Assembly: GCA_964429275.1 (NCBI GenBank)
Contig: CAYSBJ010000002.1
Location: 282,459-346,458 of the forward strand
Direction: 5' to 3'
Source: an uncultured Pseudomonadota bacterium
GTDB taxonomy: Bacteria > Babelota > Babeliae > Babelales > JAUPTZ01
DNA: 64,000 nucleotides
The notes below the pieces were generated by a model that was not told the DNA's origin, made no database searches, and saw nothing but the letters and a program-made list of their open reading frames with translations. Positions 8,268 through 58,622 of this stretch are shown one piece after another. The stretch's first letter is position 1; every line of letters starts with the position of its first letter. Both the position numbers and the translations under genes were made by a program.

Positions 8268-9257
8268 TAAACACCTCTGTCTATAGGACAATTAACCCAT
8301 TTTTTAATTGCAATAACATCTTCTGCTTTTTCAAAAAGCGCGATTGCTTCTTCAGGAAAGCCAATCATACGTAATATTGTGATATTAGCAAAAAAGACGC
8401 GTTCATCAGGAATAACTTTTACCGGAATATCACCAAGTGGCACCCCATCTACCCAATGCGTAATGAGCGTATCACGCAACGCCATTGCTGCTAAGTGCAG
8501 CTCGCAACCGAAAGCAAAAGCGGCGCCGGTATACATAGAGGAAAGAGTATCCGCACATAGCATCGCATCACGCTCAAAGGCAAAATACGCAGTTTCAGCA
8601 TACGCATCTGGAATGGCACTCTCCATAATGAGAATAACATCATGCTTTCTAAGCCGATCCTTCAAGGCTTTTTCCAACTCGATCTTAGTCATGCGTCCCT
8701 GACTGAAAATTAGAATTGGTTCGACTTCAATACCATAGGGCCTAAAAAATTCTGCTATCTCAGCCGCTTGTTCATGAAGCGGGTCATAGTCACCCATTGC
8801 AATGTAGGGAACAATGATTCGCTTAATATACTGCGCAGCAATTGCAAGTTTTTCTGCTACTGCTGTATTTGACGCTACTTCAGGAATAACTGCCGTCATA
8901 TCGGGACCAGGTGATTCTAAAGAATCAATCAATTTGTGAACCAATGGATCACGTACTGCCGTAAAAATAATCTTACCTCGCCCAATCTCCTGACATACTT
9001 GCTTTGAAAAAACGCTACACCGTAGGCCAATGGGTACCAAGACATCATACGGGTCCGCCATGTTAATTGATTCCGTTATTTTTTTTACGCATCGCTTCTT
9101 GCGTCAACTCAACGTTAACGTACGTAATATTGAAATAAAAATCATGCCCCATAACACGTCGCACTGTATCGGCATACGATCTATGAAGTTCGTTACCGAG
9201 GCCGAGCAGCAAAGCTACTCGGCACGGTCGTTTAGGTTTTGTTAACATGGTTTTCAT
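8267..9257 (-). pseudogene. PF04392-like cytoplasmic-type paralogue, split by a stop plus frameshift at about 9059-9065
   Basis: The track ORFs 9063..9257 (64 aa) and 8267..9061 (264 aa) together align end to end with the intact 330-aa paralogue 10353..11345. Compare MKTMLTKPKRPCRVALLLGL... with MTMLTKPKRPCRVALLLGL..., and ADPYDVLVPIGLRCSV with SDPYDVFVPVGLRCSV. At the junction the intact copy reads ATC AAT TTG TCT GAT CCA, whereas this copy reads ATC AAT TAA C ATG GCG GAC CCG. That is a 4-nt length difference that creates a TAA and a frame change. Confidence 0.65.
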
Positions 9258-9291
9258 AGGAGATTCCTAACACATAGCATTATCAACATTT

Positions 9292-22400: not shown

Positions 22401-22645
22401 CATCAGGTCAAACGCTCGGGCAACGTATTGCACAAGCTGAGGCGCAATCGAACGGCATACAAGAAAAAGAGATGCGTACGATCATGAATAGCTTTAATCT
22501 TTCACCAAAACAAACAATCGCCGTTACAGCGGCTCTGGAAAAGCAAAAAAGCATTCGAACCAAGCGGAGCGGCATGGTTATACCGCTGGTTGTTGGCCTT
22601 CTCGGCTCACTCGTGACCGGGCATGAGTATTTTAAGAAAGACTAA
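19427..22645 (+). CDS. secreted/membrane protein, family A member 2 (1072 aa) with S/T-P-rich repeat region
   Basis: Signal-peptide-like SLIVSPVLGMDE. Shares LLYKMWQPLDE...AGYTEKIQSL with member 1 (LILYKMSQLLDE...PGYIEKMQSL). C-terminal module at 22283..22645. Confidence 0.8.
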   Translation: MLYLLSLLFTFSLIVSPVLGMDEGASTVSSAELPATTGDVVEPNEKNEAIKTTEEIGAPEEEAADLASAATSNPTDEPAVPAHNTAATAPMRDAANAVEKKHAIPAKQRDLAALHAQYNRNVNAFLEKHVISKLNGEKKHMPLILPPYIDEFKHEANEINAKNAKDAKDADRVFEIHGAIRKIMRFFHAQGDKDFTPEELRTYYTKNNDVAKEWTKEDANAFRKIIQMLLDHEKVLLPKMLELFIQNKFERYKVALTPKEILASAIANLSGQQKFLARYCQLWTKLANTSDFVRAIAPSTTSVQEVANILIPPLKEILGSPYPTLDAIQKTEAEVKAFVTQLSKRKEAAAQAQQQAMSAIRKTLAEETKSMGTVTQQQLKGIMERAILEADNETERKLLYKMWQPLDETSNEIADYKASLNTLHLLTVYEYEGHPPLAGYTEKIQSLTDAAARRQEDLLRAREESLNKAADEIIAEFADAHPDLSAQERLEEGLVSVTTKSSDPNYLLQKNERTMAARKYIHMLQNQMEKLATTPFIPLGNLYNQLTNSFFLTKEDQVFIDQVTTQVTKRQEEMKKLDEFNRRSNDRLSSFVGENEIDPQSYGAAVEYYIQKYLDENTTNAEDVAVMFKLLEIQAKLKQDDYQGSMDPNEIAERISGDALAIIISPEEAGEFRRRYLANFSTKFREFLTNKATGKFYSTTDINESHDEQILKVLKKQVTAPALPIAPRTATSLDDTDDSKGTPPVSHKSPSPKLADKQISRTPSPKTAVQRPTSPEKGPRSLLSNAYLSTATSLDDTDDSEDNASALHRSPSPKPANKQISRTPSPLMPQQSNRHQSPHRRSPTPQPNTADMSDQSPLIDSDIDAPALDIPAPLRTTTPRPASPEKTINTPKHISPPLAQSPKPTDDEMLPDIDTDADISSTAPQASLLGNSGQGSTPPLAGAPAAPAKPKNKSVLPLAAFGGTTAASAIGFLHLQRQDRKITAFLNSIVNASGQTLGQRIAQAEAQSNGIQEKEMRTIMNSFNLSPKQTIAVTAALEKQKSIRTKRSGMVIPLVVGLLGSLVTGHEYFKKD
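21611..21904 (+). repeat. imperfect 183-nt (61-aa) tandem duplication inside the 1072-aa gene
   Basis: An identical 33-nt core ACAGCAACATCACTTGATGACACAGACGACAGT occurs at 21611 and 21794. ATTTCCAGGACCCCTTC occurs at 21701 and 21884. Both units encode TATSLDDTDDS...SPSPK..NKQISRTPSP. Confidence 0.85.
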
Positions 22646-22676: not shown

Positions 22677-24605
22677 ATGTTACATCCACGGCTACTTCTT
22701 TTATGCCTTCTTACCAGCCCGTTATCAATATTTTCAGCTACAAATCGGGATACTGTTAACACCCAACTAATCTTTTCATCCTCTGCTCCAAACATTTCCA
22801 AGACTGCAGCAGAGGAAGAAGGGGAAAAAAGGGCGCTGGCGATGGTAAAAGAAGTTGTTAAGCAGATTTGCACAGGCAAGCGGATGGAGCAAGCTGCCAT
22901 ATACAGAGAAGTAGTAAGCCAATTAGAGACCATACCGGACGCTTTTGGCACAGAATGTCGGAGGGTTGCAAAATTCTACCTTGAGCCAGAATCAGCCACA
23001 ATACCTAATCAAACAATATATACTTTGAATGATGCGATAGTTCTTGTACAAAGCAAAATAGCTTCCTCAAACAACCACTCAACGGCAATAGCCACAAAGA
23101 TACTAAAAAAAGCGTACGATCAGGAGTATCTATTATCTGCAGATGAGATCTACAAGAAAGTCAATGAGCAGCTACTCGGAAAAATTCTAAGCGGAAGCCA
23201 ACTCAGCACCATCAAGCATGAATGCTTCAATGCAATTAAGCACTGCTTTGAACCCAGAACAGTCTACGCATCAACTCTGTGCAGCAAAGACGATGTATTA
23301 GAGCTTCTGCCTGATACATCACCAGAAGAAAAAATACGGGACGCTATTCAATCGGTGGGTAGAAGAGGTGCGATACAACACGGTCGATTCTACCAGCTTG
23401 TTTATCGCCAAGTGCACCCAGATAAAATAAAGCCTACGCGATTTGCCAATGCATGCTCACAGCTCTTAGCGCGACTTAAAGCACCAACAGGTGAAGAGAG
23501 GGCGATATTGAGCACTAATCAAGCACTCGCACTTGTAAGCACAACAACTATAAGCGAAGAGGATGAACAGCTTAACAATCTCATTAATACTAGCTTTTTA
23601 GCAGTTGTTACTACGAGCCATACTGCAGGCGTAAGGGCAACGCTCAAAGAATGGCTCAGCATCTTAGCTCGAGAATTAGAAGAAGGGCAGCCGCTGGCAA
23701 GTGCAATGGAGAAACAAATTACAGACCTAGAAAGCAAAAAAAGCAGATCACCAGCGAACCTACACACTAGCTTTAACACAGCTATTAAGGAGGCAAAAAA
23801 AGCCCTTTTAGGCATGCGCATAAAGCTTAGAAAAATACTGCCACTGTACCCAGAAGAAGACACTGCAATACTCACTTCATGCGACGATGTGCACGAAGCC
23901 ATAAAGCCTCTTCTCTACGACGCGCGCAGCACTCTTTATACCAAAGATCTTGCTCAATCCGTCCAACCCTTATCTAGGGAAGAGAAGGCACAAATCTTCG
24001 CTTACTTAGTAAACAAAGAATTGCGAGATGTTACTAAAATGCTTAAAGAGCAACCAGCTTATGCAAGAAAAAAGTTCATGGAAAATGTATATCCAACCCT
24101 CAATGCTATAGCCAGAAAGGATCCGCAACAGGTAGAATATATAAACCTGGTCGTTGAGCGAATTAAAGCAGCAGAAAAATCAGGCGAATTGCAAGCACTA
24201 TTGAACGACTCACCAGCAACCACACTAAACGAGTCGACACGTTCAATAACCACTACGAATAAATTAAAATTTCCGTTTGGGGCAATCAACCTAATCTCTA
24301 CAGTATACTTGGGGCATTTAACACTTAAGGAGCGCAAACTTGCTTCATTTATTCAGGGCATTCCGCTCAATAAAAATGGCCAATCTATTTCAGAACGATT
24401 AACTACTTTAACCAAGCAAGATGGATCCATAGAAGCAAGTTCTATACGAAAGATTCGAGAAGAATTCGGTTTTTCATCAAAAGAAATGCACAACGTCAGG
24501 CGAGCTATCAAAACAAAAGAGACTATTGCCACCAGAAAAAAAGCGGCCCTCATTGCACTGACAATAGGACTTATTGGCGTTTTTGCGGTTAAAAGACGTC
24601 AATAA
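22677..24605 (+). CDS. secreted/membrane protein, family A member 3 (642 aa)
   Basis: Signal-peptide-like LLLLCLLTSPLSIFSA. The C-terminal module (24261..24605) aligns with members 1 and 2: hydrophobic helix, (K/Q)ER(K)(L/I), about 80 aa, then a terminal helix (I/L)GL(I/L)G. Confidence 0.75.
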   Translation: MLHPRLLLLCLLTSPLSIFSATNRDTVNTQLIFSSSAPNISKTAAEEEGEKRALAMVKEVVKQICTGKRMEQAAIYREVVSQLETIPDAFGTECRRVAKFYLEPESATIPNQTIYTLNDAIVLVQSKIASSNNHSTAIATKILKKAYDQEYLLSADEIYKKVNEQLLGKILSGSQLSTIKHECFNAIKHCFEPRTVYASTLCSKDDVLELLPDTSPEEKIRDAIQSVGRRGAIQHGRFYQLVYRQVHPDKIKPTRFANACSQLLARLKAPTGEERAILSTNQALALVSTTTISEEDEQLNNLINTSFLAVVTTSHTAGVRATLKEWLSILARELEEGQPLASAMEKQITDLESKKSRSPANLHTSFNTAIKEAKKALLGMRIKLRKILPLYPEEDTAILTSCDDVHEAIKPLLYDARSTLYTKDLAQSVQPLSREEKAQIFAYLVNKELRDVTKMLKEQPAYARKKFMENVYPTLNAIARKDPQQVEYINLVVERIKAAEKSGELQALLNDSPATTLNESTRSITTTNKLKFPFGAINLISTVYLGHLTLKERKLASFIQGIPLNKNGQSISERLTTLTKQDGSIEASSIRKIREEFGFSSKEMHNVRRAIKTKETIATRKKAALIALTIGLIGVFAVKRRQ

Positions 24606-41119: not shown

Positions 41120-41665
41120 TCACTTTGCTGTTCTTTTCTGTAGCACCATGCGCCCGACTGCGACCCAGTAACTCACCGATGATGCTACGGTAATAGCCGC
41201 TGTCGCAACACTCAGCCAATAAAAAAATGATCCATAGCGTCCCGCGCCAAGCACAAAGAGATACAACGCAAAAAATTGAAAGACAGTCTTGCTTTTAGCA
41301 AACCAAGAAGTTTTGAGTACTAGCCCACGGCGCACCATGAATGTCCGCAAAAAAGTAACAGCCACATCACGCCAGACCACCAGAAACACGACCCACCATG
41401 GCATCATCTGCTGCTGCCATAAGGCAACAAAGGCACAGAGAATAACAATTTTGTCAGCGAGTGGGTCGAGAAATGACCCGGCGCGTGAAGAAAGAAAGAA
41501 ACGCCGCGCAATATACCCATCACCAAAGTCGCTCACAATAGCAAACGTGATGAGAATGAGGGCTAAACCAACCGCGTGCGTGGAAATCGCATACCACAAG
41601 AAGGGAGCACTCAAAATACGCAAGACAGTCAAAGTGTTTGGAATGTGCTTGTAAAAGTAAACCAT
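41120..41665 (-). CDS. pgsA: CDP-diacylglycerol--glycerol-3-phosphate 3-phosphatidyltransferase
   Basis: CDP-alcohol phosphatidyltransferase motif DFGDGYIARRFFLSSRAGSFLDPLADK. N-terminus IPNTLTVLRI. Confidence 0.85.
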   Translation of the reverse strand: MVYFYKHIPNTLTVLRILSAPFLWYAISTHAVGLALILITFAIVSDFGDGYIARRFFLSSRAGSFLDPLADKIVILCAFVALWQQQMMPWWVVFLVVWRDVAVTFLRTFMVRRGLVLKTSWFAKSKTVFQFFALYLFVLGAGRYGSFFYWLSVATAAITVASSVSYWVAVGRMVLQKRTAK

Positions 41666-41707: not shown

Positions 41708-42925
41708 TTAGCTGGGGTTTGTCGAAAACGATTTACGCCGCTCCAGGAGCATCAACACTTCTGGCTTGAGGACTGCTGCTTCCCAGTGGGAGCCGTCTAC
41801 AAAAAAATAATGAACTAAACGACTAAGATCTCGAAAATCGTGCGGAAGCGCTGAAAAACTTACTTCGCCGGTCTGCGGGTCTTTCGACCACTTCACACCT
41901 ACAGCCTCATCACCCAGATCTACCACCGGATCAGCCCAATTACGGGCGCTCCTCGTCTGTGATCGATATATAGCATTAATATCTTTCAGCGCTGTTACAA
42001 GTTCATCACCTGTTTTCTGCGTCCGCGCCAGAGCCTCTCGTTTCTCAGCAACCTCTGCGCGTAGCCTATGAATCGCTGCTTCACTCGCTGCAAAGCACAC
42101 AGGACGCCGCTTCTTAAGCGCCGAACGCGCCTGACGCCACCACCTGTTAAATAAATAGGAGTGATAGCAACAATAATGGTCTGGCGGAACTTGCACCACA
42201 TCAAACAAAGTATTAAAAAAATCGGACCAGCAAGTCTCATTTCCCATTCGCCGTATTTCAGCTCGCTCAGCGTCCGATAGTTGATCATAATGGCGACTAC
42301 GAAGAAGCGCATACCTATCCCAGGTCTGCAACATGCCCAGTGCTTTCCTCTCATCAAAGGGTTTAGGCGCACTTGAAAATGCTACGAATCCATCCATCAG
42401 TGCTTCATCTCGCCCATAGCGTGCCACGTGTTCAAGCGACGGCTGCCTCAACTTACTTGTCAGCTCAAGAACCCTATCCACCGATGAAAACTCTTTCTCA
42501 GAGCCTCCTTGGAGCGCCTCCTTGGCCGGCACGGGGGGAGTTTGCTCAGGAATCACTGCAGACGATGGGCTGCTTTTGCTTGTCATCTGCATGCTGTCGA
42601 GCTGTACCGGCGATGATACTGCTACACTCACCGGATCGACAGGAAGCGCCCGTCTCTTCACAAAAAAGCTTCCAGCGGCAGCCCCACCCCCAACCATCGC
42701 CACCAAAAAGGCCACGTTTCGTGAACGCCTGAGGCGAGAAATGAGAGCTGTCTCACCCGATGCCGCTTCTAAGGCCAATGCTTTTTTATGCATACGCCAC
42801 GCAACTATCAACCCGGCTCCTGCAACCCCAGCACCTCCCCAGCGCACTGCAGATTTCGCATTTATCCCAGAAAAATCGACCCCCAAAGAAAAAATAACAA
42901 GAAGAATCGTAAGCGCCTGTTTCAC
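41708..42925 (-). CDS. membrane-anchored OTU-like cysteine protease paralogue 4 of 4 (405 aa)
   Basis: GTG start overlapping the upstream TGA (GTGA). Motifs AKSAVRWGGAGVAGAGLIVAW, VPPDHYCCYHSY and DGSHWEAAVLKPE. Confidence 0.6.
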   Translation of the reverse strand: MKQALTILLVIFSLGVDFSGINAKSAVRWGGAGVAGAGLIVAWRMHKKALALEAASGETALISRLRRSRNVAFLVAMVGGGAAAGSFFVKRRALPVDPVSVAVSSPVQLDSMQMTSKSSPSSAVIPEQTPPVPAKEALQGGSEKEFSSVDRVLELTSKLRQPSLEHVARYGRDEALMDGFVAFSSAPKPFDERKALGMLQTWDRYALLRSRHYDQLSDAERAEIRRMGNETCWSDFFNTLFDVVQVPPDHYCCYHSYLFNRWWRQARSALKKRRPVCFAASEAAIHRLRAEVAEKREALARTQKTGDELVTALKDINAIYRSQTRSARNWADPVVDLGDEAVGVKWSKDPQTGEVSFSALPHDFRDLSRLVHYFFVDGSHWEAAVLKPEVLMLLERRKSFSTNPS

Positions 42926-44130
42926 GCATTTCCCTCTTTATCTTTTTTTAAAAACGCCACTACCTCTGGCTTAAGAATAGCTGCATTCCAGTGATTGTCG
43001 TTCAAAAAAATATAATATCGCATATCCAATGAAATCTTCGTACGGCCGCACAGATATAAGATGCATCCCAAATTATTCTTCTTAAACAGGCCAGTACGAA
43101 CCGACCTATGCAATGAACTCGGCATATCCCAAACAGAACTGCTCGCAACTCTCGACCGGTATTTAGTAACGACAATGTCCAAATGCTTCTCAAGAGCCTC
43201 CCCTGAATATCTACGTCGGTATTCAGCCTCTAAACGGTCCGCAATTTGAGCCCGGAAAACGTGAATCATGCTTAAATCAGCCGCAAAAGCAACTGGACGC
43301 ATTGTATTCCGAGCAAGACCTGACCCATGCCACCATTTATAAAAAAAGTAAGCATGGTATGCACAATAATGATCGGAAGGAACTTCCACAACATCAAATA
43401 ATGTATCAAAAAAATCAGCCCAGTTCTTAGTCCGAAAAGCTTTAAATTCAGCTTCTTCAGCCTCAGTACGATCTCCCTGAGTCAAAAGCGAATGAAACCT
43501 ATTCCCAATCTCAACGGCTCTTCGAATTTTTTCATCATCACTAAAGCCACGTGGTATTTGTGAGAATGCAACGTATCCTTGCGCACCAGGTTGCGCCCGT
43601 GCCATACGAGCAACATCGTGCAAACGAGCTTCACGACCAGAAACCACTACCTCCGAAACATTGTTAACAACAAGAATTTCCTTCGTTGAAGCGTCTTCCA
43701 TAGATTCCTGTACAATAAAAGGCGTTGAGATCGATTGCTGGATCACGACTGGAAGATCACTTGGCGCACTCACGACTTCCTGGTGCTCTTGAATGGGAAC
43801 CAATGTTACCTGCTCTTCTGGCGCTCTCGGCGCTAGCGGTACCGACGCCTCATTCTGCATAAGCAGGCTCCCCACCGCAATTCCTGCCCCCAGAAGTGCT
43901 CCAGCAAGTGCCCGGTTACGCGAGCGCTTTGCACCCAAGACCGCTGCGTTTTCTGCTAATTTTTTCTCCAGTGCCGCCGCTTTTTTATGCATACGCAGCG
44001 CAACTATCAGCCCAGCTCCTGCAACCCCAGCACCTCCCCAGCGCATTGTAGATTTCGCCGTAACGGCCTCAAGTGATCCTGTCAAAACAACAAGCAACCA
44101 CGCCGCAAAAATCGCCATCTGTGACTTCAT
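42922..44130 (-). CDS. membrane-anchored OTU-like cysteine protease paralogue 3 of 4 (402 aa)
   Basis: Start moved from 44196 to the ATG at 44130 (MKSQMAIFAAWLLVVLTG), which overlaps the upstream stop (ATGA). Motifs VPSDHYCAYHAY and NDNHWNAAILKPE. Confidence 0.6.
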   Translation of the reverse strand: MKSQMAIFAAWLLVVLTGSLEAVTAKSTMRWGGAGVAGAGLIVALRMHKKAAALEKKLAENAAVLGAKRSRNRALAGALLGAGIAVGSLLMQNEASVPLAPRAPEEQVTLVPIQEHQEVVSAPSDLPVVIQQSISTPFIVQESMEDASTKEILVVNNVSEVVVSGREARLHDVARMARAQPGAQGYVAFSQIPRGFSDDEKIRRAVEIGNRFHSLLTQGDRTEAEEAEFKAFRTKNWADFFDTLFDVVEVPSDHYCAYHAYFFYKWWHGSGLARNTMRPVAFAADLSMIHVFRAQIADRLEAEYRRRYSGEALEKHLDIVVTKYRSRVASSSVWDMPSSLHRSVRTGLFKKNNLGCILYLCGRTKISLDMRYYIFLNDNHWNAAILKPEVVAFLKKDKEGNA

Positions 44131-45329
44131 GTGTTCCTCTCTGCGCCACCCCTTAAAAGAGCAATAACTTCTGGTTTCAAAATTGCCGGCACCCAATGAT
44201 CAACAAGATTAACGCCATGACATATTTTAGACAAATCGCCATCCCAGCCCTCAAAATTAATCTTTTCGGATATATCAAAGCCCCCAGTCTTGGCATTTTT
44301 TGCCCATACAAGGATCGGACACTTCATTTCTTTGGCAACCAAAGGTAGAAATGAGACATCAAGCCAATCAGTCGAACCCTTTTTACCAAAAACATCTTTG
44401 TAATTTGCAAGAGCGGCACGGATAAAAGGCTTTAAATCTTTATCAGGATCCAGATTAACCAGCTTATCCGCCAGAATTTGTCGTACCCAATAATACGGGC
44501 CAATGTCAATATCGTCCTTATTTTCTATTGCTACTGAAAAAAACAAGTCTTTCTCTATGATCGTATCTTTGTGCGAAATTTCATCATTGATATGACGCTC
44601 TACTTCATCCATAAGCCACGATCTCTGCCGTGCAACTTGATCCCGCGTTGCGCTAAAAAAAGTTGGTTTTTTGTCCAAAGCTTGGGGCCCATCACTTTGC
44701 CATTTATGCCAAAACTCGATCATATGAATACCACAAGAGTTATCGGCAGGCACATTAATTGGATGCAAAAGCGTCTTAAAAATCGACTGAACTTCGCGAG
44801 AAGCATAGTCCTTGCTCTCTATTTTTTCATGCAATTGCGCAAGAGCGCCCGAAATAACATCATCAGAGACAGGTACCGTCGGCGCACTCGAGATATCGGC
44901 CGGCAGTATGCCACTCGTTATTGTAAAATCCTGGCCACTAACTCGTTTTTCGGCATTCGTAGTATCATCATTTGTACTATCACTCTCTCGCATCAAAAAA
45001 CTGCCCCCCAGAGCCGATACACCGGCTCCCGCAGCAAGAAGCCCGAGTCGCCTATAATGAGTAGCAAGGATGATTTGCCTTTCAGCCAACAACAATGCAT
45101 TAAGCAGCTGAAAGCGTTCTTGAACACTCCGATCGCGCGCCTGCTCGCGCAGAAGCAGCAACGCCTTCCGCCGCAACGTTAATTTTCGCACGCGATTATG
45201 CATCGCCAGCGCAGTAAGCGCCCCTATGATTGCAGTGCCGGCTCCGCCCCAACGCACCATTGGCTTAAGGGGAATTGCTGATCCATCACAAGTTATCATA
45301 AGCAAAAGTAATAAAAGCGCTTTTTTCAT
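44127..45329 (-). CDS. membrane-anchored OTU-like cysteine protease paralogue 2 of 4 (400 aa)
   Basis: ATGA overlap at 45326-45329. Motifs VRWGGAGTAIIGAL, VPADNSCGIHMIEF, WLDVSFLPLVAKEMKCPILVW and LVDHWVPAILKPE. Confidence 0.65.
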   Translation of the reverse strand: MKKALLLLLLMITCDGSAIPLKPMVRWGGAGTAIIGALTALAMHNRVRKLTLRRKALLLLREQARDRSVQERFQLLNALLLAERQIILATHYRRLGLLAAGAGVSALGGSFLMRESDSTNDDTTNAEKRVSGQDFTITSGILPADISSAPTVPVSDDVISGALAQLHEKIESKDYASREVQSIFKTLLHPINVPADNSCGIHMIEFWHKWQSDGPQALDKKPTFFSATRDQVARQRSWLMDEVERHINDEISHKDTIIEKDLFFSVAIENKDDIDIGPYYWVRQILADKLVNLDPDKDLKPFIRAALANYKDVFGKKGSTDWLDVSFLPLVAKEMKCPILVWAKNAKTGGFDISEKINFEGWDGDLSKICHGVNLVDHWVPAILKPEVIALLRGGAERNT

Positions 45330-46858
45330 TGTTCTTCTTGCTCTTTTTTGGTTTCAACAGGAAGCGGGTTTGGTACCAAAACTGACCAATGCCCTCGCCC
45401 TCCAGTATCCAACTGACTACCAGTCTGACTGAACAAAATGTGACAACAGGAAGCCACGTCTTGCTTCAGGCCTTCCCAGCGCTTTTGAGATAGCCCTGCA
45501 CTATATGAAATGCGATACCCACCTTCATCAGCACCTGTCCAGATAAGAACGGGTTTATGCAGTATTTTAGCTATAAGCAGCACATCTTCCTGGCCCAGAT
45601 AATACTGACTATCCACCGGAGCTGGAAGACTCGTATTTATTTGTGAGCGCGGCATATCTGTTTCCCAAACCTGCGACGCACCCTTTTTCCAATGCCCCAT
45701 GCCAATAGATCTGCGTAGTCCCGGTGTAACATTTTTTCTTTCTCTTTTTGGCACTTGAGCCAATCGCTCCTGAAACAATCGCTTTCTTGCATCTGCAAGT
45801 GCATTAAAAGAAGCCCCAAAGTAGTATGGCTGCTTTGGAACGTCAGCAAGACCACTCTTAAAAAAAATATAACAATGTCCAGCACAGTGGCCGTCCCCTG
45901 GAATTTTCACGGTATGAAAAACCGAAAATAACTCGTCCCGCGACAGGCTAAAATCAAAATTTAAAAAATGCCCGGCTGGTGCCCCGTCATTGCTCACCAA
46001 AGTCGTTATCTCGCTGACCACGCGCGAAACCAACTGATTATCTGCATAGGTAACTGGAGCATTCGCTTCAAAAAAAGCTATTCCTTTTTTATCTTCCACC
46101 GAAAGGTCACCCAAAAATTTTCGGACAATAATATCGTCAGTAAGATTACCCGCAACCGACATACTCAGTGTCGCACCAACAACACCCGGAACAATATCTT
46201 GACTATCTTTGATAACTGTTAATGGTGGCTTTACAACTCTTTTCGGCTTGCCGGATGCTCTACTCTGGCGCCTCTCTCTGGAGATCGGAGAGGATGGCGT
46301 CAGAACTGAAGAAACTAGCGCCGAAGAGAGAGCCTCCACAGAAGATAAACCCACCGCCATAGACATTGGTGAAGATGCAGCCGCAACATCATCCTTGCTT
46401 AGAGCAATAGCAGGAGCAGATTCGCTCTCTGGCAGCGCAGGTAACACACGTGGCATGGTCGGCTCAAGTGGCACAGACCCAGAAAGCTCAGGCAACTTTA
46501 CAATAACTCCTTCTTTACCAGCAGGATCCGCGACTGCTGACGTAGCCCCAAATTGGTCCGCATTGCTCAGCAAGCTACCAGCGAACAGCGAACCTCCAAG
46601 TCCTAAAAAGCCAATCGCCCAATTACGCAGCACATACAATCGCTCAAGGTCTGCATCTGCCAAAGCAACAGCACCTCGCTTAACTGCTTGCTCCAGTGTC
46701 TTAATTTTTGCCTGCGCAGCAATAATCAAGAGGCTTGCCGCCGCTCCCACACCAAGGCCACCCCAACGAGCAGCCGAACGCCCAGCGCCGGCACTCACGA
46801 CATGCATTGCTGTCATAGAGCAAAACAGGAAAACCACTATTTTTTTTGACACGATCAC
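45326..46858 (-). CDS. membrane-anchored OTU-like cysteine protease paralogue 1 of 4 (510 aa)
   Basis: Motifs ARWGGLGVGAAASLLII, IPGDGHCAGHCYIFF, YLGQEDVLLIAKILHKPVLIW and GGRGHWSVLVP. GTG at 46858 abuts AGGGAG. GTG at 46852 has better spacing and may be the true start. Confidence 0.65.
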   Translation of the reverse strand: MIVSKKIVVFLFCSMTAMHVVSAGAGRSAARWGGLGVGAAASLLIIAAQAKIKTLEQAVKRGAVALADADLERLYVLRNWAIGFLGLGGSLFAGSLLSNADQFGATSAVADPAGKEGVIVKLPELSGSVPLEPTMPRVLPALPESESAPAIALSKDDVAAASSPMSMAVGLSSVEALSSALVSSVLTPSSPISRERRQSRASGKPKRVVKPPLTVIKDSQDIVPGVVGATLSMSVAGNLTDDIIVRKFLGDLSVEDKKGIAFFEANAPVTYADNQLVSRVVSEITTLVSNDGAPAGHFLNFDFSLSRDELFSVFHTVKIPGDGHCAGHCYIFFKSGLADVPKQPYYFGASFNALADARKRLFQERLAQVPKRERKNVTPGLRRSIGMGHWKKGASQVWETDMPRSQINTSLPAPVDSQYYLGQEDVLLIAKILHKPVLIWTGADEGGYRISYSAGLSQKRWEGLKQDVASCCHILFSQTGSQLDTGGRGHWSVLVPNPLPVETKKEQEEQ

Positions 46859-46863
46859 TCCCT

Positions 46864-46894
46864 ATAAAGATGCGCCCCACAAGAGGGCGCATCC
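46864..46894 (-). terminator. terminator-like hairpin after yicC, abutting the start of the OTU-like array
   Basis: Minus strand reads GATGCGCCC-TCTTGTG-GGGCGCATC followed by TTTATAGG. The stem is 9 bp. Confidence 0.5.
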
Positions 46895-46943
46895 TAAAAT
46901 TTATTTACCATTGATAGGCTTAGTCTACCTGAGCTGGTAAATC

Positions 46944-47834
46944 CTAGACAATGTTCTGCACTTGTTCGCGAATTTTCTCAATTTCCACCTTAATGTCTAC
47001 CGCACGCGCACTCATTTCATAGTTGGTGCATTTTGAAGTAACGGTATTTACCTCACGCATCAACTCTTGCAAGGTAAAGTCAAGTTTGCGGCCTTTTTCT
47101 ATTGCTGTATCAGCTAACAATCGCTCAATTGCCTGTACGTGCGAACCAAAACGGATAATTTCTTCATGTACATCCATTTTATCAAGTGCAGCAAGTCGTT
47201 CCGGCAATAAAGCGCGGGCCGTCTCATCACCAGCCTGAGCCTGCTGTTGGCAATGCGCAACTTCCTCTTTCTGCGCGGCAAGCAACTTTGCCGTAATACC
47301 CTCAATTTCACTCATCGTACGCACAATAGCATCAAGCCGATTACTTAAATCTACGAGTAATCGCTTTCCTTCATTTTTTCGCGCTTCGTGTACTTGCGCT
47401 ACCGCATCATCAACACCAGCTAAAAAGCGGGCAATGGCTTCATCGGACAAGGCCGCGCGTTCAGAAGAAAAAACCTGCGGTAAATTCATCATCTCTGCGA
47501 TAGTCAACTGACCAATAAGGCCAAATTGTTTTTGGATATACGCGCTCGCGTCAAGGTATTCTTGTACGCGGATAGGAGAAAATACTGTTTTTTCCAGCAA
47601 TGCCCCATGGCTGTTAATGCGGACCGTACAGTACACACGGCCACGGATTAAGCCACTTTTCATACGCGAAATCAGATCCATCTCACATGAGCTCAACGCG
47701 TTTGGCAGCTTACAGGTTGGCTCAAAAAAACGTGAGTTAAACGTTTTTATTTCAATATCAACACTGCATTGCTCACCGTCATGCTCCAGCATAACTACTG
47801 AAACGTTGGCAAAGCCAGTCATGCTGGTAATCAT
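46944..47834 (-). CDS. yicC: YicC-family protein
   Basis: Start set at MITSMTGF (47834), matching the canonical MIRSMTG(F/Y) N-terminus. The C-terminal L(Q/N)ELMREVNT...K motif is typical of YicC / DUF1732. Confidence 0.8.
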   Translation of the reverse strand: MITSMTGFANVSVVMLEHDGEQCSVDIEIKTFNSRFFEPTCKLPNALSSCEMDLISRMKSGLIRGRVYCTVRINSHGALLEKTVFSPIRVQEYLDASAYIQKQFGLIGQLTIAEMMNLPQVFSSERAALSDEAIARFLAGVDDAVAQVHEARKNEGKRLLVDLSNRLDAIVRTMSEIEGITAKLLAAQKEEVAHCQQQAQAGDETARALLPERLAALDKMDVHEEIIRFGSHVQAIERLLADTAIEKGRKLDFTLQELMREVNTVTSKCTNYEMSARAVDIKVEIEKIREQVQNIV

Positions 47835-47867
47835 GGAATTTTGTTGTAGCTTCATGCAAATATCACT

Positions 47868-52497: not shown

Positions 52498-53814
52498 TTG
52501 AGCAAAAAAACCTTTGTTCCCGCGTTTACCCCACGCTCCCTTAAATACAGCATCGACAAAAAATCGTCGCACTTGTGGTATCTTACTGTGGAAATCCCTG
52601 GTGCCATGACGGCCCACATTAAAGATCACATAACGCGACTCTATCGCCAGTACACACTTATGCCGGGCATTTCCTGCAACAGCCTTCCAATAACCTATAC
52701 GCAACACTATTTTGCCCAAGAAATTGAAAAAGAATCACGACAATTCCTGTACGAACACTTTATCGAAGGCAGCATTCAAAGTTTTTTGCAAGACAATAAA
52801 ATAACGACCGTAAACTGGCCACGCATCAAAGATGTTGGCGGTAGCGCACAAAATGGTTATACCATAACCATCGCCCTCTCACTGGCCCCGCAGCTTCAAC
52901 TTCACAATTGGCAGACACAAACTTTTGTTGCGCCTAAACGAAAAAACTACACCGACCTCGACATCCAGGTTGAATCCTTTATTGCCACCCTAGAGGCAGA
53001 ATCATCCTCGACGCGCACCGCGACTGTTGAACTTGGCGACTGGGTTCGCTTTTCAGCGCAATTTCGCTCACCTCTAGTGCAAACACCCGTCCACAGTCAC
53101 ACACAATATTGGCTCCGTATCACCAATCCGATACTTACTTCGCCGGCAATGCAGCAATTTTTAACTGCGAAAGTAGGAAGTTCATTTACCATACCAGCAA
53201 GCGCACTCTCTATACACCAAGAAAATCCTTTTTCTACCGACTATTATTTCGATGTTACCGTTGAACATATTGTCAAAACACAAAAACTTTCGGTACAGCA
53301 GGTACAAGACTGCCTACACGTAAGCGACCATCAAATGCTGCACAACAAGTTAATAGAGATTTTTTCCTATCGCAACGATGTTTCATTACGTAAGGCGATC
53401 ATTGAAGAATTGTTCTATGCACTCTTCAATGCCTTCCGCTTTGAGATTGCGCCACACGCGATCACACGACGAAAAGAACTACTGCTTTTTTTGATGCATC
53501 AAACACCTGACAACTCCGTCTATACAAAACAAAAGCACTTTGCAACGCACATAACACTGCTCGCAGAAACAAAATTAAAAGAAGAAGCGCTCATAGACGC
53601 GATTGCACAGCTCGAAAACATTACGGTCACGCCAGAAGACATCACTCACTATCTCTCTCTGGCGTCAAACGAACGGCTAAAAGAATTCTTATACTTCTCT
53701 CCGTTGACCGAAGACGCTATCTCTTCTGACCAACCCTGTGGTGAATATATTCTAAACCAGACAGTTCGTCGGGAGAAAACACTGAATGCGATTATCCAGC
53801 AAATTGCCATCTAA
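52498..53814 (+). CDS. trigger-factor-like protein, divergent paralogue 1 (438 aa)
   Basis: TTG start with AGGAGG 5 nt upstream. Collinear with the trigger-factor architecture: N-domain with the signature position reading MPGISCNSLP instead of GFRKGKVP; APQLQL / PKRKNYTDLDIQVESFI linker; a PPIase-sized middle region; helical C-domain. Confidence 0.6.
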   Translation: MSKKTFVPAFTPRSLKYSIDKKSSHLWYLTVEIPGAMTAHIKDHITRLYRQYTLMPGISCNSLPITYTQHYFAQEIEKESRQFLYEHFIEGSIQSFLQDNKITTVNWPRIKDVGGSAQNGYTITIALSLAPQLQLHNWQTQTFVAPKRKNYTDLDIQVESFIATLEAESSSTRTATVELGDWVRFSAQFRSPLVQTPVHSHTQYWLRITNPILTSPAMQQFLTAKVGSSFTIPASALSIHQENPFSTDYYFDVTVEHIVKTQKLSVQQVQDCLHVSDHQMLHNKLIEIFSYRNDVSLRKAIIEELFYALFNAFRFEIAPHAITRRKELLLFLMHQTPDNSVYTKQKHFATHITLLAETKLKEEALIDAIAQLENITVTPEDITHYLSLASNERLKEFLYFSPLTEDAISSDQPCGEYILNQTVRREKTLNAIIQQIAI

Positions 53815-53853: not shown

Positions 53854-55248
53854 TTGACTTTTTTTCCATACAACTCCATATACTTTTCAACACGTAATAA
53901 ACCGGCAATGACGACGCGCATTGTCTTTAAACACCCTGGTACTAGGACGGATGAAAATAATATGGTGACTCCTCATATGCGTTTCTCGTGGGAACATTCG
54001 TCAAGCTGCTTCATTTATGGCGATGTCACCGTTGATCGAGCAATTGTACAACCAATGACCACCCAAATGGCACAGCTTTACCAACACTACGCTGCATTGC
54101 CAGGTTATGAAAAAAAACATCTCCCCATCGAATATGCAAAAGCGTATTTTGCTGCGGAGATCAAGCAAGACACACAAGAATTTTTATACAAACATTTTGT
54201 ACTCCAATTTTTGCTCGACGAAATTACACGAAATCATCTAGTGACTGCTAATTGGCCACGCCTCTCAGAAGTAAAATCTATTGATGAGGGCCTTACGTAT
54301 CGCTTTATTCTTACTATTGCACCAAACCTAGCGCTCAAAGAATGGAAACATTTTGTCTTTAAACAACCTGAACGTAAAAACTATAAAGATTTGGATAACC
54401 AGGTTATTAATTTCATCAAACAAGCTACCGACACCGCTCGATCGCACGATAAACACACTACGGCAGCGGGGGACTGGGTTTCTTTTTCAGCACAGCTCCT
54501 CAATCCAAATACCGAAGAAGCGCTTTTTGAACAACAGCATCGCTACTGGATTCGCATCTCAGGCGACATCATCATAAGCAAATTACAGCAAAGTTTTGTA
54601 GAGAAAAAAGTAGGCGATGCCTTTATCGTTAACGCACTTCCATTTATTGATGCACCACAAAGCAGCATCGAAGAACCATGCCATTACAAAATAACCATTG
54701 AATCAATTACCAAAGGCGGGCACATGTCGCTTGAATTTTTCAAACAAACGTTCAAGCTAAAAACCCGCGCAGACGTCCACAAGAAGTTAATAGAGGTATT
54801 CTCATATCGTAATGATATCTCGCAGCGCCGCTCAACAATAGAAGAATTATTTCACCTGCTCTTCACGAAACATCGTTTTGAAATGCCAAAGCATATCATC
54901 ACACGAAAAAAGGAAAATCTCCTCAATATTATCAAGCGACAAAGTGACTATAACATTTATAAGAACAACAAGAACTTTGACACCCACCTCACTCTCCTTG
55001 CTGAAAAGATGCTCAAAGAAGAACTCATCATAGACCACATCGCCTACGCTGAAGAAATTAAAGTAAGCTGCGCCGATATCGCGCACTACCTCCATCTTTT
55101 TAATAACGAGCGGCTCAAAGAATTCATCTACTTTAAGCCATTAATCGATAGCGTTGAAGATTCAAATACACCAATTCACGAAGCAATTCTGGCACAAGCC
55201 GTTGCTCGTGAGAAAACACTCAATTACATACTATATACTCTCTCGTAA
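53854..55248 (+). CDS. trigger-factor-like protein, divergent paralogue 2 (464 aa or shorter)
   Basis: Clear paralogue of 52498..53814. Compare EVFSYRNDISQRRSTIEELFHLLF with EIFSYRNDVSLRKAIIEELFYALF, and LTLLAEKMLKEE with ITLLAETKLKEE. Signature position reads LPGYEKKHLP. Start uncertain: TTG 53854, ATG 53905 or ATG 53959. Confidence 0.6.
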   Translation: MTFFPYNSIYFSTRNKPAMTTRIVFKHPGTRTDENNMVTPHMRFSWEHSSSCFIYGDVTVDRAIVQPMTTQMAQLYQHYAALPGYEKKHLPIEYAKAYFAAEIKQDTQEFLYKHFVLQFLLDEITRNHLVTANWPRLSEVKSIDEGLTYRFILTIAPNLALKEWKHFVFKQPERKNYKDLDNQVINFIKQATDTARSHDKHTTAAGDWVSFSAQLLNPNTEEALFEQQHRYWIRISGDIIISKLQQSFVEKKVGDAFIVNALPFIDAPQSSIEEPCHYKITIESITKGGHMSLEFFKQTFKLKTRADVHKKLIEVFSYRNDISQRRSTIEELFHLLFTKHRFEMPKHIITRKKENLLNIIKRQSDYNIYKNNKNFDTHLTLLAEKMLKEELIIDHIAYAEEIKVSCADIAHYLHLFNNERLKEFIYFKPLIDSVEDSNTPIHEAILAQAVAREKTLNYILYTLS

Positions 55249-55337: not shown

Positions 55338-58300
55338 ATGATGTACATAGTAGTAGTATTACTTGGATTACTTGCCTGGAACGCGCCGCTCATCGCCAAA
55401 CAACGCGATCCTGTCGTATTAGCAGCACAGGAAAACTCGCTCCCCGCTAACTCTGTCAAAGCGGATCATCAGCCGGAACATCAAAATTCCGTTCCGGCTA
55501 CCGCTGCGCCAAAGCCATCTCAAACAGAAAATGACGATACTGACATCACCACACTTCTGGATGATAATGACTCTACAGCATCAAATGATGATGATAACAA
55601 TGATGAACTAAAAAGTTTACTTGGCGATACTTCTGCCACCGGTGAAGATTTTGATGACTTGAAAAATCTTCTCGACGACACTCCATCAGATGCTAACAAT
55701 GGTAGCGAGAAAGAGGATGTAAGCGCTGACGATACTGATTATAGTGACAGTAGCGAGGAAGAGGATGAAGATGATAATCCTGGCCCGGGTACTTTCAGTG
55801 CTATTGATGGTGCCGATGTTAATCTTCCCATAATTGGCGGCTTTTCCTTCAATCCCTCACCAGAAGCTATTGCTGACAAGACTGTTTCCCCTGCTGGACA
55901 GACACGCAAAGATGCAATTGATAAGGCAGACAAAAAAAGCTTCAACGTTGGGCTCATTTCCTTCACTAAAGTAACTGGGCACGTAGATAAAAACGGCCGC
56001 CTTGCAATGGAAGGTACTTGTACTCTCAATAACCAAGAAGGCAGTATCTCCGTCATCAAATTTGATGAGAAAACAACGGAACTCCACCTCAAGCTAAGCT
56101 ATTCAAAACCATTTACTTTCGACATTTTGCCGAACACTTCAGTTTCTATTTCGGAGTTTAAACTTGAGCTCACTAACAACGGGCCAACACTCACCGCGAA
56201 TTCTTCTGTCTTTACTCCAAACAATAAAAAAGGGACTCTTCTTACCTTTGGTACAGAAGTCACCGGCAATAGCGGTGCTACAGGCACTATCAAGAATGAA
56301 GTTCCACTTACCACTCTTGTCCCTCAAGCAAAAGGGAACAAAGATGCAGAAACAATCACACTCTCCAACGTCACTATTTCCTTCCTTAACCCACTGGCGC
56401 TTCAACAACAGCTCATGGAATCTGGCGGCATGCCATCCACCACTATTACAGCCAGTGCGGTGCTCTCTCGCATAAAACTTTTTGGTAAAGCACATCTAAG
56501 TGATTCCGATGTTACCATAACAATCAGCGGCCCAAGCATCAGTCTTGACAGCCAAGGAACATCACCTATTCAATTAGACACCAACGTTGCACTAAATAAC
56601 CCAAACATACAGATGAACCTTTCGCAAGGAATGCCGCCTGAAGTCGGTATCGGCGGCACGCTGGCCTGCGATCTTCCGGTAGTCGGAACTATTAATACCC
56701 CGGTGCATGGAAGAAAAGGCATGGGTGAATTCGAATTAACCGGCGCTCTTAATAACAGCTTTGGATGGGGGCCAGTAAAATTTGAAAACCCAAACATAAA
56801 TCTTTCTTCTGCCCCAATGATGGGGATGGGACAGCTGGACCAGGACACAACAGACCACAATTTACTTAACATTTGGCTGAGTTGTCACTTTAAAATGTTT
56901 GGCCTCGATATTATGCCGATTTTACGCTTCTTAAAACCAAGCGGCGGCAATCCAATGGGAGGAGCAATTCCAACTAAATCCGGCAGGATAGTTAGTTTTT
57001 CCGGACAGATCAACGGTGGAAAACCAATTAAACCCCTCTCATACATTCCCGGCCTTAACGAAATCCCTGGGATAAAAGACTTCTTGCTAGAGCAAGCAGA
57101 ACTGGGCGGCGACTCAGCAGCAAAAATGTTCATCGGCGGCACAACAACGCTCTTCGGAATTGCCACAAAAGCGAAAATTTTAATGGGGAGTGCCAAAAGC
57201 ATTCTCGCATCAAGCACAAAAGCGTGGAAAATATCGCACTCAATCCCATCGCTAAAAGGGAGTGTTTTAGACTCTCTCGAATTTGAAACCATTACTTTTG
57301 GCTACACTAAAGCACAGTATTTAGATGCAGAATCTGGCATGATTATGCAGCCAGGTCTAAATATTTTTGGATCAGTAGATACATCTCAAGGGATATTTAA
57401 AGATTTACGGAAGTTCCTTAAAATAATCCCAAAGAAACTCATTGGCGGGGTAACGCTGCACCCAAATCCTCAGCACTGCAAAATACAAGTCGCCATACCA
57501 CTCGACGTAAAAATTTCGAGCCGTGTAAGCCTACACAACATCATGTTCGAAATAAATGGCTCACCAGGCATTGCGCTCATGCTCTCACTAGCCTTCATAA
57601 CAAATAAGAACGAACCACCACTTATTTTTACTGCGCGGGTTGAGTTTAACCCTGGTTTCTTTATAGTCTCAGGCAGTCTCCAGGGAGTATGGAAAAAACC
57701 TTTCGGCATTCCAGGACTTATCCTCAGCGACATGGCCGTAGAACTCTCACTTCCCTATAACTTAATCCCACCGGTAGGTTTTGGCGTGACAGGAGCTATC
57801 CAGATTGGAAGCTTCATAGCACGAGCAGCCGTCAAAATCGGTCCAAAAGATATGTTACTTCTCGCCGAAATAAGCAAGTGGCCGCTCTTCTGCTTGCCTG
57901 ACCTAATGAACATGGTCGGCCTTAAAATTCCAGGCCTAGAATTCATCAATGCAATCGACATCTGCTTACGCGATGTCAAATTTAAATTTGCGCCGAATGG
58001 TGGTCAAATTGGTATGATTTATTTCGACCCTGGCATCAGCGCCTCCGCAAAACTTATTTTAAACATTCCATACATCATAAAAACAAAACTTGAAGCTGCC
58101 TTCAATTTGGACTGGATCGGTGGCTTCAAGATGTACGCAAAAATGTCCGGATTCAACCTCGGCCCCTTAAAAATTACGGGAAAAGGCGAGGATAAAAAAT
58201 TCAATACCAGCGATGACGGAGCTATATTTTGGGCCGAGCTCTCTCTCTCTCACCAAAAAATATACATCTCCGCACTTGTGGAACTTTTTGGTTCATCAGC

Positions 58301-58622
58301 AGAACTTGAAATTGATGTTGGCCTCTTGCATATACGCTTTAAAATGATGATGAAACTTCTTGGATTTCTTAATACACACATTGTCGGAGAAACGTATCAT
58401 AAAGGCTGGCGAGTAGGCTTTCGCGTCATGGGTACCGCAAAAATTGGAAATAAGGCAGAGGCAACTATTTTTGGCGACATCAATACACTAGGATGCTCTT
58501 TTGCAGGAAAATATGATGCGCTAACCCTCCATGATATCGCCGATCTTTGCCATATACCAAGCGATATCATTCCTCAATTCGGAATGACCGACATAGAATT
58601 TTACGTTCGAGCACAAGGATAG
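55338..58622 (+). CDS. giant secreted protein 1 (1094 aa): signal peptide, acidic disordered region, beta-rich body
   Basis: Signal-peptide-like MMYIVVVLLGLLAWNAPLIA. Acidic tract at about 55521-55790. The C-terminal module (about 58098-58400) is homologous to a module in the next gene. Confidence 0.8.
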   Translation: MMYIVVVLLGLLAWNAPLIAKQRDPVVLAAQENSLPANSVKADHQPEHQNSVPATAAPKPSQTENDDTDITTLLDDNDSTASNDDDNNDELKSLLGDTSATGEDFDDLKNLLDDTPSDANNGSEKEDVSADDTDYSDSSEEEDEDDNPGPGTFSAIDGADVNLPIIGGFSFNPSPEAIADKTVSPAGQTRKDAIDKADKKSFNVGLISFTKVTGHVDKNGRLAMEGTCTLNNQEGSISVIKFDEKTTELHLKLSYSKPFTFDILPNTSVSISEFKLELTNNGPTLTANSSVFTPNNKKGTLLTFGTEVTGNSGATGTIKNEVPLTTLVPQAKGNKDAETITLSNVTISFLNPLALQQQLMESGGMPSTTITASAVLSRIKLFGKAHLSDSDVTITISGPSISLDSQGTSPIQLDTNVALNNPNIQMNLSQGMPPEVGIGGTLACDLPVVGTINTPVHGRKGMGEFELTGALNNSFGWGPVKFENPNINLSSAPMMGMGQLDQDTTDHNLLNIWLSCHFKMFGLDIMPILRFLKPSGGNPMGGAIPTKSGRIVSFSGQINGGKPIKPLSYIPGLNEIPGIKDFLLEQAELGGDSAAKMFIGGTTTLFGIATKAKILMGSAKSILASSTKAWKISHSIPSLKGSVLDSLEFETITFGYTKAQYLDAESGMIMQPGLNIFGSVDTSQGIFKDLRKFLKIIPKKLIGGVTLHPNPQHCKIQVAIPLDVKISSRVSLHNIMFEINGSPGIALMLSLAFITNKNEPPLIFTARVEFNPGFFIVSGSLQGVWKKPFGIPGLILSDMAVELSLPYNLIPPVGFGVTGAIQIGSFIARAAVKIGPKDMLLLAEISKWPLFCLPDLMNMVGLKIPGLEFINAIDICLRDVKFKFAPNGGQIGMIYFDPGISASAKLILNIPYIIKTKLEAAFNLDWIGGFKMYAKMSGFNLGPLKITGKGEDKKFNTSDDGAIFWAELSLSHQKIYISALVELFGSSAELEIDVGLLHIRFKMMMKLLGFLNTHIVGETYHKGWRVGFRVMGTAKIGNKAEATIFGDINTLGCSFAGKYDALTLHDIADLCHIPSDIIPQFGMTDIEFYVRAQG

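Follow-up and report, generated by a model that had tools for sequence, protein, structure and literature searches.

What do four consecutive, overlapping genes encode that lie between yicC and pgsA in the genome of an uncultured bacterium, and what might their products do? We addressed this question in a 64,000-nt stretch of DNA (hereafter the window; contig CAYSBJ010000002.1 of assembly GCA_964429275.1, positions 282,459 to 346,458). The original prediction, made from the sequence alone, had read these minus-strand genes, here called W1 to W4, as translationally coupled paralogues encoding membrane-anchored, OTU-like cysteine proteases. In this study, we found that the C-terminal domain of the four proteins is well supported as a divergent OTU-fold cysteine protease: three profiles and two structural models agree, and nothing else competes.

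The OTU fold and its catalytic residues

When a profile of eight family sequences was compared with all chain sequences in the Protein Data Bank (PDB), only viral OTU (vOTU) domains of Crimean-Congo haemorrhagic fever virus (CCHFV) matched, with E-values of 0.033-0.075. A nine-sequence profile gave a best E-value of 0.002, nairovirus-type vOTUs making up 15 of its 16 matches, and a profile of the W1-type subfamily matched the Farallon virus vOTU 6DX5 (E 0.0058). The profile alignments placed the family motif V-P-x-D-G-x-C-x-x-H against Q-P-G-D-G-N-C-F-Y-H of CCHFV, the central element of the family profile against CCHFV LAKEMGITIIIW, and the family H-W-x against CCHFV H-F-D, which we take to be the catalytic His151 and Asp153. 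The central element as it occurs in W2 (GSTDWLD…LVAKEMKCPILVW) and W1 (YYLGQEDVLLIAKILHKPVLIW) was aligned to CCHFV NEWGSTLEASMLAKEMGITIIIW and Farallon YWGGTDEAEMLASALNVTIVIW. Cys motif, central helix and His motif thus follow one another collinearly in the family and in the vOTUs.

The motif strings quoted in the original prediction were all found verbatim, and its assignment of the proteins to the OTU family was borne out by the profile searches against the PDB and by AlphaFold modelling and Foldseek comparison of W2 and W4, a check that it had itself proposed and in which OTU domains alone stood at the top. The scan with the Pfam OTU profile PF02338, which it had also proposed, went the other way: none of the window proteins reached the gathering threshold, and none gave a match even at E ≤ 10. 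Because that threshold was not reached, OTU membership rests on the profile-to-PDB and fold evidence. A sub-threshold match to PF02338 was obtained for the relative in L014 (E 0.019, 15.9 bits, the cut-off being 23.3). The intervening element that had been read between the Cys and His motifs stood out in W1 and W2, whereas W3 and W4 showed only a weak one.

Two of the proteins, about 24% identical to each other, were modelled. Full-length W2, modelled from a 10-sequence alignment, had a mean predicted local distance difference test score (pLDDT) of 72, with most of the C-terminal domain at 80-90, and residues 147-405 of W4, modelled from a 9-sequence alignment, had a pLDDT of 84.3 and a pTM of 0.83. 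Searching the PDB with Foldseek revealed that the best 15 matches of the W2 model were all OTU domains, including the Farallon vOTU (E 5.4e-3, TM-score 0.61 by target), A20, OTUD5, TRABID, OTUB2, LotA and OTULIN. The best 39 matches of the W4 model were likewise all OTU domains, among them the CCHFV vOTU 3PSE (E 5.4e-4, probability 1.0), the Kupe, Dugbe, Hazara, Erve and Taggert vOTUs, OTUD2, yeast Otu1, OTUD5, OTULIN and Ceg23. Many of the OTU matches of the two models had a probability at or near 1.0. A Foldseek search of viral predicted structures returned mostly long-helix (tape-measure) proteins that matched the anchor, with a pithovirus 'OTU-like cysteine protease' at rank 12. A fold of the CE clan was rejected for these proteins: their catalytic order is Cys...His, not His...Asp...Cys, and no CE-clan protein was among the top Foldseek matches.

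P-x-D-x-x-C-x-x-H and H-W are invariant in alignments of 8 and 10 sequences comprising the window proteins and their orthologues. Judged by secondary-structure placement, Cys199 of W2 and Cys252 of W4 are the first residue of a long helix (199-219 in W2), and the invariant His starts the last beta-strand in both models (379-384 in W2). The residue at His+2 is Ser in W1, Val in W2, Asn in W3 and Glu in W4. The common OTU threading is C…H-aromatic-D/N/E (PMC7396840), although some viral OTUs lack the third triad residue and the active SnOTU has a Leu (Leu-236) at that place (PMC10643670). The absence of this residue from W1 and W2 weakens the case for activity in these two proteins but, since some active OTUs do without it, is compatible with activity.

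The Cys and the His are invariant in all family members except one. An anchor-bearing homologue at the yicC/pgsA site of L013, a more distant relative (9951-11210, plus strand), has A-N-N-G-N-S in place of P-G-D-G-H-C, so that Ser stands where Cys is expected and Asn where Asp is, and its His motif is H-Y-W; it is possibly a pseudo-enzyme or a serine variant. In the single-copy members of L014 (2336-3913) and L015 (9681-11243), the His at Cys+3 is replaced by Tyr (PGDGHCLLY), which indicates that this His is not essential to the family.

Anchor, locus and evolutionary history

Both the window proteins and most relatives start with a leader whose N-terminus carries positive charge and which then becomes strongly hydrophobic (mean Kyte-Doolittle hydropathy 2.1-3.0); it is followed by a Gly/Ala-rich hydrophobic helix that begins with RWGG (1.3-1.8). 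Small residues at -3/-1 of the leader look like those of a signal-peptidase site (…VTA↓K, …INA↓K). The RWGG helix and a second glycine-rich hydrophobic helix (1.4-2.0) are separated by a basic loop, 27-51 residues long with 6-13 K/R, in which acidic residues are few in the window proteins and their close orthologues. In the full-length W2 model, residues 21-66 pair with residues 69-112 in one long hairpin of antiparallel helices (pLDDT 77-88). Helix 2 is followed by a segment that is net acidic in W1-W3, and a low-complexity linker of 55-200 residues rich in Pro/Ser/Ala/Val leads to the C-terminal domain of 175-230 residues; the linker is long in W1, and that of the single-copy relative P0010 is a (Pro-X)n rod. 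Because the loop is net positive and the post-helix segment of W1-W3 is acidic, the positive-inside rule would place the loop in the cytoplasm and everything after helix 2 outside it, so that the predicted location of the catalytic domain is the outer face of the cytoplasmic membrane.

Other kinds of N-terminus were considered and dropped. A lipobox in W2 ('MITC') is conserved in neither orthologues nor paralogues, and a prepilin-type leader would need the G/FTLxE motif, which is missing. Chlamydial Inc-type anchors consist of two hydrophobic lobes with a short loop, have no Sec signal and use type III export, whereas here a Sec-like leader precedes the helices and a basic helical loop of 27-51 residues sets them apart. 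A search for homologues with the anchor alignment gave no match; low-complexity sequences probably took up the 8000 candidates that it admits, and the search is uninformative on the presence of the anchor in other proteins.

The family is very small. An exhaustive hidden Markov model (HMM) search of 1.84 billion cluster representatives yielded only nine proteins at E ≤ 1e-3, namely the four window proteins, two from L004, P0008, P0009 and P0010, all of which have the anchor-linker-OTU architecture. A word-indexed homologue search retrieved only W2 itself and one orthologue when W2 was the query, and nothing beyond the query when the C-domain alignment was used; a scan of genome contigs with the W2-type alignment matched only the L004 genome. 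Candidatus Dependentiae is the label of the nearest relative, a metagenome-assembled genome, and the family is confined to one Dependentiae clade, with its position between yicC and pgsA in every member. There are four copies at this site in the window and four in L004; a Joint Genome Institute (JGI) metagenome has three, with the locus divided over two contigs; L009 has one, which overlaps pgsA by 4 nt; and the more distant contigs L012, L014 and L015 have one each, with YicC proteins that are 64-74% identical. From this comparison, the locus is judged to be old, vertically inherited and expanded from one copy to three or four. In L015, an 853-aa protein is encoded between yicC and the OTU gene (6992-9550, plus strand); it has a signal-like leader and sub-threshold ankyrin repeats (Ank_2, E 7.5e-5), and its C-terminus contains two glycine-rich hydrophobic segments around a basic loop that look anchor-like by eye, with no match to the anchor HMM.

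Tightly packed overlaps, verified by reading the sequence, join the four genes: ATGA at 45329-45326 (W1/W2), ATGA at 44130-44127 (W2/W3) and GTGA at 42925-42922 (W3/W4). Shine-Dalgarno sequences of the AGAGG type precede the starts of W3 and W4. That of W1 (AGGGA, 46863-46859) abuts the first GTG, which makes the second GTG the likelier start, and the public gene call for W1 (P0003, 508 aa) also begins there. W1-W4 are closely packed into a single block and are probably translated together. Base composition, including G+C content, of the array resembles that of its surroundings. A hairpin upstream of W1 may be a terminator of yicC or an attenuator for the array; the 102-nt stretch that contains it folds at -32.2 kcal/mol (z -2.84), and its stem is retained in L004 with a different loop. 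Scans for promoter and terminator consensus sequences gave background level only. The coordinates of these features are listed in Table 1.

Table 1. Positions of the W1-W4 array, its parts and its neighbours in the window (position 1 is the first nucleotide of the window)
Feature	Position (nt)	Strand	Remarks
pgsA	41120-41665		Flanking gene
W4	41708-42925	minus	405 aa; GTG start at 42925
W4 OTU-like domain	41711-42262	minus	
W4 His380 codon	41786-41788	minus	
W4 Cys252 codon	42170-42172	minus	
W4 anchor	~42659-42925	minus	
Repeat, 80 nt	42780-42859 (W4) and 43979-44058 (W3)	minus	93% identical direct repeat; encodes the RWGGAGVAGAGLIVA (RWGG) helix
W3	42922-44130	minus	402 aa; ATG start at 44130
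W3 OTU-like domain	42925-43455	minus	
W3 His380 codon	42991-42993	minus	
W3 Cys256 codon	43363-43365	minus	
W3 anchor	~43858-44130	minus	
W2	44127-45329	minus	400 aa
W2 OTU-like domain	44130-44825	minus	
W2 His378 codon	44196-44198	minus	
W2 Cys199 codon	44733-44735	minus	
W2 anchor	~44991-45329	minus	
W1	45326-46858	minus	510 aa from first GTG; 508 aa from likelier GTG at 46852
W1 OTU-like domain	45329-45976	minus	
W1 His490 codon	45389-45391	minus	
W1 Cys325 codon	45884-45886	minus	
W1 anchor	~46559-46858	minus	
Hairpin	46867-46895	minus	12-bp G+C-rich stem, then UUUAU; between yicC stop codon and W1 Shine-Dalgarno sequence
yicC	46944-47855		Flanking gene

With regard to the locus, most of the original prediction stood. 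The four open reading frames (ORFs) and their three 4-nt overlaps, the flanking genes yicC and pgsA (names that rest on Pfam matches of the orthologous neighbours in relatives) and the succession of leader, RWGG helix, basic segment and second hydrophobic segment, the last in most relatives as well, were confirmed, and the sequence is consistent with the proposed translational coupling and membrane anchoring. Paralogy of the four copies was supported by their shared invariant motifs and by tblastn, in which each C-terminal domain, searched against the 64-kb window, matched the other three copies only (E 1e-5 to 3e-33; W3 and W4 matched each other at E 3e-33 with 38% identity). Purifying selection on the genes and the confidence of the AlphaFold models also speak against a chance resemblance. 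The array had been described as interrupting a run of housekeeping genes; it does lie between yicC and pgsA, but a recent horizontal insertion was rejected, since its G+C content is unremarkable and the synteny is kept in relatives with YicC only 64-74% identical, the relatives found carrying one to four copies at the same site.

The array has evolved much faster than its neighbours. Between the window and L004 or L001, identity is 94-99% for YebC, RuvB, YicC and the SSF transporter, whose ratio of nonsynonymous to synonymous substitution rates (dN/dS) is 0.01-0.07 and whose dS is 0.33-0.51; comparison of a pgsA fragment was set aside for its poor alignment (89/96 codons, dS 2.1). Identity to the respective orthologue is 72% for W1 (dN/dS 0.40) and 67% for W2 (dN/dS 0.28), W3 and W4 are 35-48% identical to R3 or R4 of L004, and R3 and R4 are 58% identical to each other. 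For the family, dN is 10-40 times that of the flanking genes, with dN/dS values of 0.2-0.6 that point to purifying selection on the array genes. Low divergence of the flanks against 35-72% identity of the paralogues, with one to four copies at the same site, would be arms-race-like. This rate pattern fits host-interface proteins or relaxed constraint and is atypical of housekeeping enzymes.

Within the genes, the anchor is the most conserved part, and the linker evolves fastest in W1/R1 and R3/R4 (dN/dS 0.69 and 0.81, the OTU domain having 0.27-0.51). The anchors of R3 and R4 are 90% identical and their OTU domains 40%. W3 and W4 share an 80-nt tract in the anchor (Table 1); because synonymous sites of this pair are otherwise saturated (dS ~2.6), the tract probably arose by gene conversion. 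It is probable that gene conversion homogenises the anchor while the catalytic domains diverge.

Elsewhere in the window, five large ORFs had no Pfam match at E ≤ 1e-3: 19427-22645 (plus, 1072 aa), 55338-58622 (plus, 1094 aa), 17641-19275 (plus, 544 aa), 22677-24605 (plus, 642 aa) and 5358-6890 (minus, 510 aa). Relatives have a gene of similar size at the position of the 1094-aa ORF, adjoining trigger-factor-like genes. The two trigger-factor-like paralogues of the window are adjacent (52498-53814 and 53854-55248, both plus) and the pair is kept in relatives; the first has only a sub-threshold match to Trigger_N.

Proposed function and competing explanations

The explanation that we favour, to which we assign a probability of roughly 0.6, is that W1-W4 are Sec-exported, membrane-tethered OTU isopeptidases directed at the ubiquitin or ubiquitin-like (Ubl) system of a protist host. 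A Sec-type leader would export each protein, two glycine-zipper-like helices would pair as a hairpin around the predicted cytoplasmic basic loop, and the flexible Pro/Ser/Ala/Val-rich tether of 55-200 residues would hold the catalytic domain outside the cytoplasmic membrane. Catalysis would proceed via the Cys of the P-x-D-x-x-C loop, at the N-terminus of its helix, and the His that opens a beta-strand and is followed by a Trp 'gatekeeper', and the substrate would be host ubiquitin or Ubl, removed at the bacterium-host interface. One ancestral copy may have given rise to four, with fast divergence of the catalytic domain leading to different specificities. To our knowledge, Dependentiae are known only as protist-dependent parasites or symbionts and every OTU enzyme characterised so far cleaves conjugates of ubiquitin or of a Ubl, and for these two reasons we consider removal of host ubiquitin or Ubl to be the most likely function.

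The lifestyle of the phylum is in keeping with a host-directed role. Dependentiae have a long history of parasitism, and their cultured members infect protists and rely heavily on candidate effectors that bear Sec signals (PMC6561590). In Chromulinavorax destructans, signal peptides are present in 44% of the coding sequences, most ankyrin proteins included, and outer membrane vesicles (OMVs) were observed at an early stage of infection (PMC6561590). Two further proteins of the window are ones that we counted as lifestyle context for the host-directed explanation. A 636-aa protein (12828-14738, plus strand) has a PLA2_B domain of the cytosolic-PLA2/lysophospholipase type (PF01735, E 6e-20) with a weak patatin match; as a phospholipase of eukaryote-like type, it is a plausible host-directed enzyme. 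An 868-aa protein (2577-5183, minus strand), in which leucine-rich repeats (LRR_8, E 1e-13) are the only domain recognised, is a candidate eukaryote-like effector.

Several points weigh against this explanation. Pfam and NCBIfam scans of the four window proteins gave nothing relevant, the C-terminal regions of nine family members gave no OTU match when scanned singly at E ≤ 10, and the sequence E-values are individually marginal. Foldseek gave modest scores, with E-values of 5e-4 to 5e-3 and TM-scores near 0.5-0.6, and the alignments supplied to AlphaFold were shallow (9-10 sequences). The D/N/E expected at His+2 is missing from W1 and W2. In a diderm, the predicted site of the catalytic domain is the periplasmic side of the inner membrane; no route for crossing the outer membrane is evident, and the neighbourhood of the array contains no secretion-system genes. 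Finally, pgsA and pgpA, both phospholipid genes, belong to the same conserved block as the array, and this arrangement, together with the 4-nt overlap with pgsA in L009, could suggest an envelope function.

Such a function is the core of the strongest rival, in which the proteins are OTU-fold proteases that stay in the envelope, have no ubiquitin role and cleave a bacterial or periplasmic substrate, such as envelope proteins or imported host peptides. The predicted C-out topology would tether the domain to the inner membrane, the place of the locus beside pgsA and pgpA is fixed and anciently conserved, and no secretion-system gene or signal lies nearby. However, every structural neighbour at the top of the Foldseek searches of the PDB is a ubiquitin- or Ubl-specific OTU, and we know of no described OTU-fold enzyme whose substrate is neither Ubl nor a polyprotein. 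Turnover in copy number and a dN 10-40 times as high as in the housekeeping genes on either side are atypical of housekeeping envelope enzymes, and gene adjacency is weak evidence in reduced genomes. Taking these data together, we regard an envelope protease as unlikely. We also advance, tentatively and at similarly low odds, the suggestion that the OTU domains are exported by Sec only and act outside the cytoplasmic membrane, either displayed on the bacterial surface, on OMVs or on host membranes or, more radically, repurposed for a non-ubiquitin envelope substrate. If export is by Sec only, the RWGG glycine-zipper hairpin would be a lineage-specific tether, homogenised by gene conversion while the catalytic domains diversify.

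It is very improbable that some or all copies are catalytically dead and keep the fold alone, as ubiquitin-binding decoys or scaffolds. Such pseudo-enzymes would agree with the Ser of W1 and the Val of W2 at the place of the canonical third triad residue, with the much reduced central region of W3 and W4, and with the Cys-to-Ser and Asp-to-Asn changes of the L013 relative at the same locus. Nevertheless, the Cys, the His, the Asp three residues before the Cys and the gatekeeper Trp are invariant in the four copies and their orthologues despite 35-72% identity, and several active OTUs, SnOTU among them, can do without the third residue (PMC10643670). A spurious resemblance to OTUs, in which coincident motifs and model hallucination conceal another fold or function, might be argued from the curated Pfam and NCBIfam thresholds that were not reached and from the shallow alignments under the AlphaFold models; it is made highly improbable by three separate profiles that match vOTUs (15 of 16 matches in one) with three collinear motifs, by models of two ~24%-identical paralogues that retrieve OTU folds alone at the top, and by the weak direct match of the L014 relative to PF02338. 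We give least credence to deconjugating enzymes of a bacterial ubiquitin-like system of the Bil/Bub type, for which the sole support is that ubiquitin-like conjugation systems do exist in bacteria (the statement in the original prediction that bacteria lack ubiquitin is too absolute), as no E1, E2 or Ubl gene occurs among the neighbours in the window or syntenic loci (ruvB, SSF, yebC, yicC, pgsA, pgpA and gyrA) and a signal leader with a membrane tether is unlike the cytoplasmic deubiquitinases of defence systems.

Relation to known deubiquitinases and significance

The vOTUs of nairoviruses (CCHFV, Farallon, Dugbe, Hazara and Kupe; 3PSE, 3PHW, 6DX5, 4HXD and 7JMS) are the best profile and structural matches of the family. 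Both groups have the P-G-D-G-x-C-x-x-H Cys loop, including the His at Cys+3, a 'W/Y-x-G...LAKxL...I-I-W' central element, and a His-aromatic pair close to the C-terminus, and in both the domain is compact, at about 160-230 residues; sequence identity between them is only 11-19%. The viral domains, however, form the soluble N-terminus of a polymerase polyprotein and have neither a signal peptide nor a membrane hairpin. Their gatekeeper is Phe, whereas it is Trp in W1-W4, and their third residue is Asp, whereas it is S, V, N or E here.

Bacterial OTU effectors, such as LotA-C/Ceg23 of Legionella, wMelOTU, ChlaOTU, RickOTU, EschOTU and SnOTU (PMC7396840, PMC7690952, PMC10643670), have in common with the W proteins the OTU fold, the C...H-aromatic threading and a host-dependent bacterium. 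LotA and Ceg23 are among the Foldseek matches of the models, and SnOTU additionally shares a predicted transmembrane region and a non-acidic third residue (PMC10643670). The W proteins differ from these effectors in their Sec-type leaders, in the N-terminal two-helix anchor and in having no match to a curated OTU profile, and their genes differ in forming a four-gene, translationally coupled array at a fixed chromosomal site.

Chlamydia offers an analogue in function and architecture, namely Cdu1 and Cdu2 (ChlaDUB1/2), which are encoded by adjacent paralogous genes (PMC5370187). Cdu1 consists of an N-terminal transmembrane segment, a flexible region and a C-terminal ubiquitin/Nedd8 protease domain, and it is located on the inclusion membrane, facing the host cytosol (PMC5370187). 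Unlike the W proteins, Cdu1 and Cdu2 belong to the CE clan (Ulp/SENP-like) rather than the OTU family, and Cdu1 has a single-pass transmembrane segment where W1-W4 have a signal peptide and a hairpin. Within the same phylum, C65 (otubain-family) peptidases of C. destructans have been listed as secreted and as membrane-bound (PMC6561590); they are known from an annotation table only, and the family profile found no member beyond the narrow clade among the 1.84 billion representatives.

It is established that bacteria possess OTU deubiquitinases, some of them membrane-anchored and some in multi-copy sets, and OTU-family peptidases have been listed for one Dependentiae genome. New here are a very small, divergent subfamily that curated profiles miss and that is closest to nairovirus vOTUs, its conserved signal and glycine-zipper hairpin anchor, and its occurrence as a translationally coupled, fast-evolving array at a fixed site.

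Dependentiae are widespread and almost uncultured, and their effector biology is barely charted; the locus described here offers a defined set of candidate manipulators of the ubiquitin system. It raises the question of how a Sec-exported enzyme tethered to the inner membrane would meet host ubiquitin. The presence of one to four copies and of a Cys-to-Ser variant provides natural variation that could be used to study how deubiquitinase specificity diversifies. Moreover, the closeness of these proteins to the OTUs of nairoviruses and giant viruses may bear on gene exchange among the inhabitants of protist cells.

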